Made by a program: the position numbers and the translations under genes. This document shows, in pieces, positions 8,557 to 48,781 of a stretch of DNA of 64,000 nucleotides (within the stretch, counting starts at the first letter, position 1; each line of letters opens with the position of its first letter). The notes under the pieces are model-generated. The model made no database searches. It saw only the letters and a program-made list of their open reading frames with translations, and had not been told where the DNA came from. Source of the stretch: Cystobasidiomycetes sp. EMM_F5 (Eukaryota); the NCBI GenBank assembly GCA_051047955.1, contig JBPGPT010000011.1:310001-374000 (forward strand). The letters are read 5' to 3'.

Positions 8557-10546
8557 ATGTCGTCGCCCGTCGCCCGGCTGCAGCAGATCGCGTCGGCTTT
8601 GAAGGATACCGTGACCGGGCAGACCCACCAGCATTCAAATCCAGACTTCAAGAATCCCCACGCTCTCAAGTTCCAGGCTGGACTACCAAAAGGCCTCAAA
8701 GTAAATCATACCCCGTTGAATCCCGTTTCCTTCCTCCTGCGCTCGGCGACAATACGGCCAAACCGGATAGCGCTGAAGCACCCCGCCAAGAACGCACAAT
8801 GGACGTATGCGGAATGGTAAGCTCAAGATATACAGCGTCTGGATACTTGTTCATACTCTTTCACTCAGGGCAATGCGAGTCTGCGCGCTCGCCTACGGTC
8901 TAAAGAAGCGGGGAATCAAACGCGGGGACAGAGTCTGCATCATTTCGCCAAATGCACCCATGATACTCGATCTCATCCAAGCACTACCAGCTATTCACGC
9001 AGTCATGGTCCCGATGAACATTCGTCTCACAAAGCCCGAGGTCGACTATATCTTGGGTCATTCCGGTAGCAAGATGATCATATGCGACTACGAATTCAAA
9101 CGTCTATCGGAAGATTTCGACGGCGAAGTCATCATTTGCAATGACTCTGCAGGAACAGATCCATCGGATCCATACGAACAATTGATAGCGGAAGGACAGA
9201 AGGAAGCAAACGAGATTGGCTGGGCAGGCCTAACCCTCGTTGACAATGAGGAGGCTCCACTGGCGATATGCTACACTTCGGGAACGACGGGAAGGCCGAA
9301 AGGAGTATTGACGACCTTCAGAGGCTCTTACCTTGCTGGTCTCGCCAACGCCTTCGAGGCGCAGATGAATCACGATTCCGTTTACCTCTGGATTCTGCCA
9401 GCCTTTCACGCCGTTGGATGGACGTATCCGTTCGCCGTTACTGCATCAGCAGCCGGTCAAGTATGCTTACGGTCCGTTGGAGACTACACCCCAATCTGGG
9501 ACGCTTTCATCAGGGACAAGGTTACGGTAAGCTACGCTCATACTTTCCTGTTCGCAACATTGTGCTGACGATTGTCGCTCGCAGACGTATTGCGCAGCGC
9601 CTACCGTCCAAATCGCCATATGCAATCATCCACAAGCTGGCACGCTCAAGCACAATGTACGAACAATGATAGCTGGTGCAGCACCATCTGCACACCTCAT
9701 TCAATCTCTGGAAAAGATAAATATCCAAGTCTGCCACGTGTACGGCTTGACCGAGACGTACGGGCCGTTTACAGCCTGCATACAACACAAGGAATGGGAT
9801 GATCTGTCGCCCGAGGAATTTTACAGACTCAAAGCCATGCAAGGGCATGCATACGTCACATCTGACCTTGTACGGGTTGTGAGGACAGACTCTTCTGCCG
9901 CTGATGGGTACGAGGATGTGGAGCCAAACGGGAAGGAAGTGGGAGAAATTGTCGTGCGGGGCAACCTGGTCATGCAAGGTGAGTTGAAAACTACACACAC
10001 CTATGGTGGGAACATGCTGAAGACTTAGGATTCTGTCAGAATACTACAAGGACCCAGCCGCTACTGCGAAAGCTTTCGAAGGTGGCTACTTCCACACGGG
10101 CGATTTGGCAGTCATGACACCTCACGGTGCTTTGAGTATTCAAGATCGTAGCAAGGACATCATCATCAGCGGCGGAGAAAACGCATCGTCTCTAGCTATC
10201 GAGAGCGCTCTATTCGAACATCCAGACGTCCTCGAAGTAGCGGTGGTAGCCAGGCCGCACGAGCAGTACGGTGAAAGGGCACATGCCTTCGTCATCCTTC
10301 GACAAGAGGCGCAATCCAAATGGAAAGGCAAGGGGTCAGATTTCGAACAGGAGCTCATTACGTTCTCCAAGACAAAGTTGCCAGGCTTTGCCCGCCCACA
10401 ATGGGTCGAGATAGTCGAGGCGCTGCCGAAGACTAGTACGGGCAAGATACAGAAGCACGGTGAGACACAGAGCCTTTCGACTGCGAGCGTTACCGAGGCT
10501 TACTCGTGATGGCGATTCAGAACTCCGGAAAAAATTCAAGCAATGA
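8557..10546 (+). CDS. Acyl-CoA synthetase (AMP-binding enzyme)
   Basis: TPLNPVSFL, YTSGTTGRPKGV, HVYGLTETYGP, GGYFHTGDLA, DRSKDIIISGGEN, LPKTSTGKIQK; 5 exons, last ends ELRKKFKQ*. Confidence 0.93.
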
Positions 10547-11102
10547 GCCAAGCCAGGGTGACCTAACATCGGACGTCAGGCATGGAGCGCTGTTACTGCG
10601 CTTGTACAACAGGTAAAAGCATTTAGTCGATGACATCGTATGCTAGTCTACATTGTGCTGTAAAAAAGTTACCGTCTAGCCCTACGCCTTCTAACAATAT
10701 GTAGTTCCAACCAATGTCATTCGGCAGAACTACGCAGCAATCGCATAGACGAACGCTGGATGAAACAATGAGAGAGTCTGATACATAGGGAGGCGTTTTT
10801 GGCTCTGGTAGCACTTGTGCGGATCCAGCTGCATGCCGTAGCGTTCGTTATCATTCTTGTCATTATGTTACAGTATCGCGCGCTAGCACCTCGGAGTCGT
10901 ATCAGCGCACTTCAAATAACAAAAAGAAAGCTCGCATCGACTAACCGGACTCAAATTAATGGAGTTTAATGGGCAGTATCGTTACCCCACGATTCGGAGA
11001 GCTTTATTGGAGGACGCACTATGACTCGCTGTTTCGATCTGCATCTTTTGTGAGGAAGCAGTGAAGGCGTAGTCTTCCCCTACTCGTACCGAGACTCGGT
11101 GA

Positions 11103-34153: not shown

Positions 34154-37100
34154 TCATTGCTTGTTGCGATGAAGTGAGAATCGTGATTTCGTCTTGATTG
34201 ATGACGCCGGCGCGTCGGCAGATGAAGGTGTGAATGCATATGCGGGTGAGTTACGCGAGGGCTCTGGAGTTCCAGGAGTGGCAGCTGCGGTCCAGGCCAA
34301 GCGCAACTGTACAGTTCTTTCCTCGATAAGTAGCTCGACATCCTGTGCATCACGAATCCCAGGATGAATGTATTTCCACACATCTATGTCGGTCGACCCA
34401 ACCTCCTTGTCCTTGCCGAGCGTCTTTTTCGCGTTGATGGTAACGGTGAGAGTCAATGCCTGAGGCAGCGTCTTGAAAAGAAAGGCTTCAAAAGTTCCAG
34501 TCGAACCTTTGATGGTATGGGTTTTGTCTGGAGATTGATTTGGGCGGCTGACTGCGGTCGAGAAAGGTACCTTGTCAGCAAACAACGCATGCCCCGAAGT
34601 CGATATCACTTACCGGACACATACTCCTTCGTATCCTCTTTTGCGCCAGAGAGTTTGATGATTGTGATCTGGAGATCTCCAAACCCTGGCACACCACTGA
34701 GAGGCGTCATTGAGACTGTGCCGTTGATATTCTGACTGCCCGAATGGTGCGTAGGCGAAGGGTCGCCACTGATTGAAGCAATGTCTTTCTTAGCGGGTGT
34801 GCTGAACGATGGATCTACGGTGCCGTCATAGCTTCGCCTGCCTGGCACCATGCGATGTGCGCCGTGAAGTAAACCCTTGCCGACGGATGTAGCCCCACTG
34901 CCTACCACATTCACGCTGGTCCAGGCAACTTTGCCGCCCTAAACGAAATCGCCCAAGTCAGGGTTGCAGCATAAAGGAGCCTGTTGCGGCAACTCGCCTT
35001 GCCAACAATTTGTGCACCTCCAGCAAGACCAGTGGCAGCTGCTCCAGTGATGAAATTGCCATGCAGGGTGCTTGTTGCTCCTCGTGTGCGGTACAGATTC
35101 TGGGTTGCTCATCAATCAGCTATTTCAGCACCCGGCAATCAAAGAACTCACTCCAGGTGTGAAAATGAGGCTGACGTTCAGTGTACCCTGTTGCTGTCCA
35201 CCTGGGCCAAGCACAGGCAGACTTTGCAACTTTGCCGAGAATGGTTCAATGTCTAGAACGTTTATTCTGCACCCCCCCAACGGATCAGATGCAGAGACCC
35301 TATCCCAGTCGAACACTGGAGCAATGGGTGTCAACATAGCCTGTCGTGACGTTCACACCGGGGGACATACCCTCAACCGTCAATTCTGCATTCCATCGCG
35401 AGAATACCTCGATATCGAAATGCTGCAAATAATTGTCACGCCCATACCACACCACGTGTCACAGTAGAGCTCACCTCATTCCATTTGGGATTTAGTGTTT
35501 TCTTTTGGATGGACGTCTTCGCATGTTGCATTTTGACCTTGTTGAGATAGATCTGACAGTAGGGATCGCTTTTCCCGTTGCGGTCTGCCGCCTTGAGGTT
35601 GATTGCATCTATAATGGTCACACGTATCATACCACAATCTTGCATAAAAAGGGTTAGTCCGCGTGCGTCGCCTGACCGATGCATAACCCACTGAGAGACG
35701 TTTCCCGCAGCTCCAGCTGGATCGGTACAGGTATGAACTTCGCTCTCAGGTTGATGCGAGACGTGATAACCGCTTGTTCAGGATGTTTGTCGTTTACAAG
35801 CTCTAGCACACCCTGGTGATCTAGGCACTTCTCCAGCAGATGCCGCAGCGATGTGGTCAATTCCGCCTGGACATCTTCCTTGCTATCTTTTCCGGCAGTA
35901 TTCAGCTTCAGGGTTATTTGAGCATTGTCCATCTCTCGAATAAATGTTTCGCCGACTTCGTCCCACAGGTTGCTGTCGACTGTTCTAGCGGCCGCGGTAG
36001 AATCTATTGAGGCGATCATGTTCAGCTCACTGGATTGCTTCATGGGCAGTCCTTGACTCACATTCTGGCCAAAATGCGCCAGCCTGCGATATTTCCAGCC
36101 GGGCCCCCTTTCGTACATGTTCGCCCGAAATGATGTGAAATGCAAATACTCCAGAGCCTGCGCATGACGGTCATCAGCAGCTATGAGGTGCGTAACCCAA
36201 TCACAGAGAGCGTACCGCTAGAGAGCAGCTCTTCTTTCGTCATTACTACACCATCGTTGTTTGCTGCGGTTGTCGAAAAAGTAGCAGCTGTGTTATGAGT
36301 TGCTACCGTCGACAAACTCGCTAGTGATGCATTCGTACGATGGGTCAGCTGACGCGGTCTGCCTGCGTCGACGCCGTTGCGCGTGTCCGTGAATACATCG
36401 CCTGAGGCCGTCTTCTCGGGCAGGTCGCTTATGGCTGCATTCTGTTCATCCCTCGGCATGTGATCAGCCGTATGCGTTGACGGGCTGTTAACAACCATCG
36501 AAGCACTGTACTCGGGCGATGTGGGAGAAAGTGCGGACAGTGGCGAAAGTAGAGTAGGGGCAGGATCAAAACGAACATTGCGAAGGTTGACAGTCGGATG
36601 GAATGTTACTGAGTAATTCAGTTCTCCCTTTGCTGTTTTACCGTTATCGGTTACCAAGCGTGCGGTACGTTCAAACTTGTCTCCTGCCACATAGGGCTGT
36701 GTCTTGTCCGGTCCTGCTTTGATGATCGCATCGACTTGAAATTTGGTGAGACCTAATGTCCGGTCCTTCGTATTTTCCTGATAGTCCATGCATTCGAATA
36801 CAAGAGTCTCGTTTGTGCTTGCATTTCACGTGTTAGATACAGCATGGCGATGGTCGGAAAAAACTTCGCATACCTGTGTACCGGTACATAGAGTATTTCG
36901 TCGAATTTGGGGTCTAAATTATTGTTGAAGACCAGGGTTCTGGCGACCACCAGACCGTTGCGAAGGACACGGACATAGGGGTCGGACTTGCCCGCTGTAT
37001 CATAACCCCGAAATGCCCTCAGTCTGGAATGTTGTGACCGGTGTTCCCGAACTCACCAGTAAGCTTCTCGACATTTTTCAGATCCGAAGCCGATTCGAAC

Positions 37101-46721: not shown

Positions 46722-47574
46722 ATGCGCACGACGCTGTGCAGATGCTTCAGTATGGCTAGGAGTCAACTGGCCTCGCCGTCTGCCATTTCCTTTGAAGCTG
46801 CTACGACGCCGGCGGCTAGTGGCAGCACTCCCAGAAACTCTGGAGCCATCGCACAATCCATCATGGACAGGAAGTCTTTTGTGCCAGATATGAAGAACGT
46901 GCAGAACGACGAGATACGGGGCCATTTCCGCAAGATGCTTGGCGTGTCGGCTCTGGCTGCTGGAGCACCTCCAGGTAAATTGCTGTCAAGCGAGTATTCT
47001 GTACGCTGGCTTACGAGAAGGCATGTTCCATCATTCAGAACAAGTTCAGAGAGATTATGAAGCCGGGACAAGCCAATCCCCCTCGCCAGATAGTCTAGCG
47101 AATCAATCAGTCGTCTACGAAATTCCTCCAATGGAGGATCCCCTGCTGCAATTTCTCACAAACCTCATGATGACTTCTGGCAAGAAGGCTACTGCAAGAA
47201 ATCATGTTTCTACCGTTCTCTCTACCATCCGATTACGTTCGTCCTCCGATCCACTTCCCATTCTTCGCCAAGCGATTCGTCTGGCAGCTCCAATGATACG
47301 GTTAACGCAACAGAAGCGAGGTGGAAAGAGCGAGTCTGTGCCAATAGCACTAGGAGAGCGTCAAAGTGTCAGGCTGGGGATACAAGCAATCCTGAAAGCG
47401 AGTGACAAGCGATCGAATCCAACAGCCGGCGGGTCAAAGGTTTTCGGCGAGCGCGTGGCATACGAGATTGAGGCGGTCATCAATGGGACGTCAGATGTGT
47501 TGAAGCGGAAGGATCAACTACACTCCGCAGCGACTGTCGCTCGGTCAAAGGTCGTCCAGAGTCGGGCGCGGTGA
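46722..47574 (+). CDS. RSM7: Mitochondrial ribosomal protein uS7m
   Basis: R/S-rich presequence MRTTLCRCFSMARS; DPLLQFLTNLMMTSGKKATA, AAPMI...RGGK..VPIALGERQ, LHSAA; 1 intron. Confidence 0.9.
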
Positions 47575-47647
47575 CACGACTGATGTATTACCACTGTAAT
47601 GTTACGCAATGCAAGTATCGATACTGTTGCCATGGCCAAGATCAATA

Positions 47648-47680
47648 TTATAGCTTGCTGGCTGCCTTTGCGACTAGTCA
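47648..47680 (-). other. Stop-codon read-through signal (TGA CTA) and extension encoding PTS1 (LVAKAASKL*)
   Basis: Minus strand reads AGT TGA CTA GTC GCA AAG GCA GCC AGC AAG CTA TAA. Confidence 0.85.
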
Positions 47681-48781
47681 ACTGTGTTTCGTAGCGGGCC
47701 ATGACGGTCTCGCTTCATCTACCGCCCTCCGCAATTGTTCGATGACTTCTTTCGGCTGAGGCGCACCAAAGACTGCCGTACCAGCAACAATAACATTACT
47801 GCCCGCATCAGCACACGGCTTGATCGTTTTCGGCCCTACTCCTCCATCGACTTGTATGTCTTTGGTCGGAAATCGTGCCCGCAGTTCCGACACCTGTAGT
47901 AAGACGTACATCAAGACATTTAGCAAAGCGAAATACATTGAAAGACCAAGAATCGCATGACTTGCTCACCTTTGGTATGCACTCTTCCATAAACTTCTGC
48001 CCTCCCGCTCCGGGGTGAACAGTCATTACGAGCAGCATGTCGGCCTTCTCCCCAATCTCGTCGGTGATGGCAGTCGAGGGCGTCTGCGGGGAGACGGCCA
48101 CACCACATCGCATACCCGCGGCATGAATCTGATCGATGACAGGAAGCGCCTTCTCTGTGTTGAAGTATGCTCGTAAGCGCTCTGTGGGTATTGAAGACGG
48201 CGTTGTCCTACCTGGACCTGTTGCCTCAATATGAAACGTGTATGACTTGCCGCCTGCCTCAGCGACGTCGTTTACCCACTGCAAGAGAAGATTAGACGGC
48301 GCAGATTGCATGGCTCAGACACCTCACTCTGGCAGGATCAGACACCATCATATGACAATCCATCCAAGCGCCAGTAACGGTTTGAGCAACGCTCTTTAGG
48401 ACAGGCGCGCCTGGATTTGACTGCGTCAGCCAGACAATGTTTATGTGAGCTATTCACCACTCTACCTATAGTGATATTTGGAACGAAATGCCTGTGAGTT
48501 TGGTAGGGTTCGTTGGATTCAGTAGGACGCGGCACCATCAGCTTGTGACGCACCCATCCATGACATCTGCACGATAGACGAATGTAAAGAGAGAGCAGAA
48601 CATGTCAAAGACGCAAACGGATGAGCTGTGCGCGTGGGACGCTGATGGCCGTACCCATATGTAGCCAATCTGCTCCATCCTTGATGATCCTGGTGCATTC
48701 GGCAGCCAATTTGCCAAAGTCGCTGGCGAGAACAGAGGGCGCAATCTTGGTGGTCGCAGCATCAGAGGACGACGACGACAT
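47678..48781 (-). CDS. RPE1: D-ribulose-5-phosphate 3-epimerase
   Basis: [74 protein letters not shown]. Confidence 0.97.

Follow-up and report, generated by a model that had tools for sequence, protein, structure and literature searches.

The ribulose-phosphate 3-epimerase gene (RPE1) of Cystobasidiomycetes sp. EMM_F5 probably gives rise, through read-through of its stop codon in the context UGA CUA G, to a minor peroxisomal isoform ending in SKL beside the cytosolic enzyme, as judged from its sequence. The gene was found in a window of 64,000 nt (assembly GCA_051047955.1, contig JBPGPT010000011.1, positions 310,001 to 374,000), which is the whole stretch of DNA that was analysed and to which all coordinates below refer. 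A preliminary description of this DNA had placed at the end of RPE1 a TGA followed by CTAG, with nine in-frame codons leading to SKL immediately before a TAA. The minus strand was read over 47560..48700 and translated over 47899..47600, and these coordinates proved to be exact (Table 1).

Table 1. Coordinates of RPE1 and of the elements around its stop codon
Feature	Position in window	Strand	Basis
Ribulose-phosphate 3-epimerase gene (RPE1), ATG to TGA	48781..47678	-	Pfam PF00834, tblastn of relatives, splice model
RPE1 exons 1-7	48781-48655, 48566-48554, 48491-48466, 48410-48328, 48278-48212, 48154-47970, 47893-47678	-	Spliced model
RPE1 last intron, 76 nt, GTGAGC..CTACAG	47894..47969	-	Splice model and run X3 contig
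Annotated stop TGA	47680..47678	-	Minus-strand reading and translation; C-terminus ...ATKHS shared with P0002
Bases CTA G following the TGA (UGA CUA G leaky context)	47677..47674 (CTA 47677..47675, G 47674)	-	Sequence
Nine-codon in-frame extension LVAKAASKL (CTA GTC GCA AAG GCA GCC AGC AAG CTA)	47677..47651	-	Translation
AGC AAG CTA, Ser-Lys-Leu, the canonical PTS1 tripeptide with which the read-through product would end	47659..47651	-	Translation
Second stop TAA, abutting SKL	47650..47648	-	Sequence

The identity of the enzyme is clear and the gene model is intact. Exon limits were set by tblastn of four related proteins (P0004, P0002, P0009, and P0007) against the window, and the resulting spliced model, with seven exons and six introns that are all GT..AG, was in frame and encoded 238 amino acids. 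Two exons exceeded the curated cut-off of 21.1 for PF00834, exon 6 with 59.7 bits and exon 7 with 29.6 bits (E-values on the two exons of 3e-16 and 6e-07). The product was colinear with the full-length relatives P0004 and P0007, and the conserved HMDVMDGHF, DCHMMV, and DIQVDGG stretches were present in it; we take these to contain the metal and catalytic residues. Four public sequencing runs gave short contigs on the window, and the last intron was confirmed by a contig from one of them (X3) in which position 47890 was joined to 47967, with 76 nt skipped and ends of CT..AC on the plus strand. Exons 2 and 3, which are only 13 nt and 26 nt long, interrupt a conserved stretch of 14 residues.

The nearest named protein, P0002, is labelled by its source as the ribulose-phosphate epimerase of the same Cystobasidiomycetes sp. 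EMM_F5. It was identical to the exon-coded residues of RPE1 and had the same C-terminal end, while the remaining named matches were from Pucciniomycotina and Agaricomycotina. By these matches the source of the window is a cystobasidiomycete-like basidiomycete and no smut fungus. The N-terminus of P0002 is read from within intron 1 and exon 1 is absent from it; the exon 1 product matched residues 8-38 of P0004 at 100%. The public model of P0002 thus seems to begin at the wrong place and to lack part of the 5' end of the gene.

The extension LVAKAASKL has no acidic residues and carries a Lys at position -6; with only nine codons it is too short for a measurement of coding constraint. In the alignment, the native tail of RPE1 (10 residues) runs past the last conserved stretch, and roughly 20 residues would separate SKL from the last conserved helix, which makes its exposure to Pex5 plausible. 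A convergent gene for a mitochondrial-type ribosomal protein S7 (PF00177) is encoded on the plus strand at 46894-47574, with its TGA at 47572-47574, and 73 nt separate that stop from the TAA of the RPE1 extension. Because the two genes converge at this short distance, their 3' untranslated regions presumably must overlap. The extension would be in the first part of this overlapping region and is hence almost certainly in the mRNA. No stabilising RNA structure was found 3' of the RPE1 stop (z = +1.19; 180 of 200 shuffled sequences folded at least as well). The published core read-through motif needs no RNA structure, and the absence of structure after the RPE1 stop is consistent with an element that consists of context only.

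The preliminary description had also relied on two points of background, that UGA CUA(G) is a leaky stop context and that a peroxisomal Rpe1 made by read-through was reported from Ustilago maydis. Both were borne out by the literature: the context is documented for mammals as well as for a basidiomycete (PMC4207609, PMC4973966), and the U. maydis enzyme is described in the text of PMC4207609. In a U. maydis reporter, UGA followed by CU was enough for read-through (Stiebler et al. 2014, PMC4207609). All U. maydis genes ending in TGA CT were screened in that study, and its Table S1 contains 66 rows, three of them marked 'Targeted' (PMC4207609). The top PTS1 score in the table belongs to um04797, the U. 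maydis RPE1, which has TGA CTT and an extension given as ...VEGKLARRPAKL, with a tail that reads ...RRPAKL; this extension sends GFP to peroxisomes, and read-through of Rpe1 is stated to occur in other fungi too (PMC4207609, Fig. 2). According to the same text, many such genes carry a G at +4 following CUA. For UGA CUA (G) alone, read-through of about 4% is reported from human systems, and yeast inserts Trp, Arg, or Cys at UGA (PMC4973966). A literature search on the epimerase that also covered PTS1, read-through, and the pentose-phosphate pathway returned two papers, the one of 2014 and an unrelated one on trypanosomes. Nothing in print was found on the enzyme of Pucciniomycotina; the main text of PMC4207609 names no Puccinia, Rhodotorula, Cryptococcus, or Sporisorium, and its species list is in Fig. 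2C, outside the text searched.

In PMC4207609 the class of enzymes with a cryptic PTS1 uncovered by read-through is defined by UGA then CU, ideally CUA G, and RPE1 carries both sequence hallmarks of this class, UGA-CU (here with the A and the G) and an in-frame terminal PTS1. Under the proposed mechanism, most ribosomes would stop at the UGA and release the cytosolic protein of 238 amino acids. The CUA G that follows would allow a small fraction of ribosomes to decode the UGA with a near-cognate tRNA and to add the nine codons; if yeast is a guide, Trp, Arg, or Cys would be placed at the UGA, and the fraction may be around one percent, to judge from other genes with UGA-CUA. The longer product, ...KHS-X-LVAKAASKL, would be recognised at its SKL by Pex5 and imported into peroxisomes as a minor isoform, and a single RPE1 mRNA would then serve both compartments. 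An epimerase in the peroxisome may be useful to the cell, for example in sugar-phosphate or NADPH metabolism. On the sequence, and by analogy with the genes above, such a minor isoform appears mechanistically well founded, with read-through in EMM_F5, exposure and import of the tail, and usefulness to the cell as the steps that we infer.

The main alternative is coincidence without function, in which an ordinary 3' untranslated region happens to read this way over its first 33 nt and any read-through product is unselected translational noise. We consider this rather unlikely, and what sustains it is the negative result on conservation that is given below. Chance rates were estimated in two ways. 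The six reading frames of the window together contain 4269 in-frame stops. The frame behind the stop ended with [SAC][KRH][LM] at 25 of these and with SKL at a single one, that of RPE1; the TGACTA context occurred at 29 stops. The 120 nt after the RPE1 TGA were also shuffled 200,000 times with dinucleotides preserved, which gave a [SAC][KRH][LM] end in 797 shuffles, SKL in 55, and a stop-free stretch in 29,407. The product of two of these rates (29/4269 x 55/200,000) is our own estimate of the joint rate of TGA-CTA and SKL, approximately 2e-6 per stop. Occurrence of TGACTA together with SKL at RPE1 by chance is therefore unlikely, and coincidence becomes less likely still because the combination is found in one of the few enzymes with a validated device of this kind, and indeed in the very enzyme validated in U. 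maydis. Against this, the extension is short, and very many genes were scanned at the first stage, so that some rare chance cases are expected. Even an unselected UGA CUA G with a terminal SKL would be expected to bring some enzyme to peroxisomes, and thus a lack of selection would not imply the lack of an isoform.

Two other places in the window bear on PTS1-like ends. Only one stop-to-stop open reading frame of at least 100 codons had a strict PTS1-like end after its stop. It is located at 36183 on the minus strand, in a C2/tricalbin-like gene region, where TAG CTG is followed by an extension of 40 residues that ends in ...ILARM; this end looks like chance background. An AMP-binding (acyl-CoA synthetase-like) gene at 8777-10560 on the plus strand was considered as an example of an overt PTS1 and rejected: it ends in ...ELRKKFKQ TGA, with no PTS1, and a probable intron at about 10459-10519 precedes that end.

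Conservation of TGACTA with an in-frame PTS1 in related species, which the preliminary description had named as a check on its proposal, found no support among the relatives with readable 3' DNA. A metagenome scan yielded 80 RPE-related loci with readable 3' DNA, mostly distant or non-fungal and not including the contigs that encode P0009/P0039, P0052-P0054, and P0004, and the device was absent from all 80, a result that favours coincidence. The stop was TGA in 27 of these loci and TGAC in three, and TGACT did not occur; among the 77 extensions that reached a second stop, none had a cryptic strict PTS1. Four of the 80 were Pucciniomycotina-like, and in each the frame after the stop was without PTS1: L001, with a last exon 82% identical to that of RPE1 (...WPKAS TGA ATT), L002 (...AGTLT TGA TTC), L006 (...ALDSK TAG), and L067 (...AKAKA TGA GCG). 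When the read-through product, with the TGA as W, was used as a protein query, there were 97 matches, none of which had the extension in frame. Since the readable intervening relatives are without it, the device was likely gained independently in a cystobasidiomycete-like lineage rather than inherited in common with U. maydis, as far as these sequences indicate.

The ends of the closest relatives were compared in the main frame. The closest sequence of all to RPE1 was that of P0009/P0039, which was 94% identical over the last exon and ends in ...PSWPSGNKL. A maximum-likelihood tree of 26 rows was built from 25 sequences chosen from 142 stored matches and the spliced product of the window, with fragments that cover only the last exon omitted. 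In this tree P0009 was the partner of the RPE1 of the window (support 92/78), and P0004, with the end ...EAGRL, joined the pair next (91/86). The overt ends of these two nearest full-length relatives in the tree, NKL and GRL, are both non-canonical. NKL is described as supporting import in the context of alanine:glyoxylate aminotransferase (PMC2120593). Three last-exon fragments, P0052, P0053, and P0054, were closer to RPE1 than P0004 (88%, 86%, and 85% identity); they end in WPKAQ, KWLKN, and GQKQQ and have no overt signal. Ends of the form [KR]L were rare in the family and were found in two of the 150 representatives and in seven of the 142 word-search matches, with P0009 and P0039 sharing one tail, and strict PTS1 ends in one of the 150 and none of the 142. 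PTS1-like main-frame ends also occurred in four other basidiomycete epimerases (P0012, P0027, P0071, and P0130), which are ...AKANL in Cronartium, ...SQKL in Microbotryomycetes sp. JL201, and ...GLKL and ...WGKL in metagenome fragments. The Cronartium end is presumably catalase-like.

The pattern among the nearest relatives, which is post hoc and consists of three sequences, may point to retention of a K/R-L end in the immediate clade through different encodings. A more extended reading of the data would be that a partly peroxisomal epimerase is a maintained trait of a small cystobasidiomycete-like clade, independent of Ustilago. In that case the encoding would flip between a weak overt signal (NKL in P0009/P0039, GRL in P0004) and a strong SKL behind UGA CUA G, with signal strength traded against the rate of read-through to set the same small peroxisomal share. 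This is offered as a speculative proposal, and we hold it to be unlikely.

The same relatives are the point in favour of a third explanation, that the RPE1 TGA stands in place of a sense codon, through a mistake in sequencing or assembly or through a nonsense mutation peculiar to the strain, and that the true protein always ends in SKL and is constitutively peroxisomal: P0009/P0039 and P0004 do end in KL or RL in the main frame. This explanation is very improbable. A contig of 230 nt from the public run X1, which is independent of the window unless it is the source sample itself, as it may be, showed 0 differences from the window over 47640-47783, a match that spans the C-terminal codons of RPE1, the TGA, the extension, and the TAA with 8 nt more, and that gives no obvious sign of an assembly error at the TGA. 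The named protein P0002 also stops at the same place, and a fully peroxisomal sole epimerase would presumably deprive the cytosolic pentose-phosphate pathway of this activity. Beyond 47640 the X1 contig continues for another 86 nt that are unlike the window; it could come from a strain whose 3' flank differs, or it could be a low-depth chimera.

The least credible explanation is that SKL is reached through alternative splicing or a frameshift, in the manner of the fungal GAPDH/PGK splicing variants or of yeast IDP2 with its +1 frameshift; both routes are known in fungi (PGK/GAPDH, PMC4973966; +1-frame cryptic PTS1s, PMC4526572), but in RPE1 the SKL is in the zero frame right behind the stop, no homopolymer slippery run precedes the stop, the sole GT..AG pair that spans the TGA upon inspection by eye would be a 9-nt 'intron' and is not usable, and the one spliced contig seen, that of run X3, uses the normal last intron.

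Read-through of UGA CUA G to a minor SKL-ended isoform, the reading that we prefer, can be compared with several known systems. The closest is U. maydis Rpe1 (um04797), which belongs to the same enzyme family and likewise has UGA-CU, a short in-frame extension, and [SA]-K-L directly before the next stop; dual targeting to cytosol and peroxisome from one mRNA was proposed for it, as it is here. The two differ in detail, with TGA CTT and the AKL of VEGKLARRPAKL in U. maydis and TGA CTA G and the nine-residue LVAKAASKL in RPE1, and the extensions are alike only in their KL end. They also differ in lineage, U. maydis being a member of the Ustilaginomycotina and the source of RPE1 a cystobasidiomycete-like member of the Pucciniomycotina, and in the kind of support, which is experimental for U. 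maydis Rpe1 and comes from sequence for the gene described here. Pgk1 and Tpi1 of U. maydis and LDHB and MDH1 of mammals are different enzymes with the same stop context, a strong PTS1 behind the leaky stop, and a small peroxisomal share. This class of read-through enzymes with cryptic PTS1s goes back to Freitag et al. 2012 (Nature) and Stiebler 2014. The extensions of mammalian LDHB and MDH1 are listed as conserved across vertebrates (PMC4207609, Table S2), whereas none of the 80 loci shared the device of RPE1.

Two further systems reach a similar end by other means. In the methylotrophic yeasts K. phaffii and O. polymorpha, ribulose-phosphate epimerase activity is also described in peroxisomes, but it comes from a paralogous gene of its own, whose product carries an overt signal and serves methanol or xylulose-5-phosphate assimilation (PMC6052537), while here there would be a single gene with a recoded stop. 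In pre-duplication yeast IDP2, a cryptic PTS1 just past the stop of a cytosolic NADPH-related enzyme is revealed by translational error (Yanagida et al. 2015, PMC4526572); that signal is in the +1 frame and is reached by frameshift, whereas the SKL of RPE1 is in frame behind a leaky UGA.

The mechanism, the stop context, and the enzyme were all published by 2014, so that RPE1 of EMM_F5 is a further instance and raises no new question. If the reading is correct, the read-through route for peroxisomal pentose-phosphate enzymes would reach the Pucciniomycotina, which are distant from the smut fungi. Its presence there would probably represent a convergent gain, which would strengthen the case that sugar-phosphate enzymes are repeatedly selected for a second location in peroxisomes and acquire it anew with ease. 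Standard annotation ends at the RPE1 TGA, as the ...ATKHS end of P0002 illustrates, and predictions of the peroxisomal proteome for such fungi would therefore miss the isoform.
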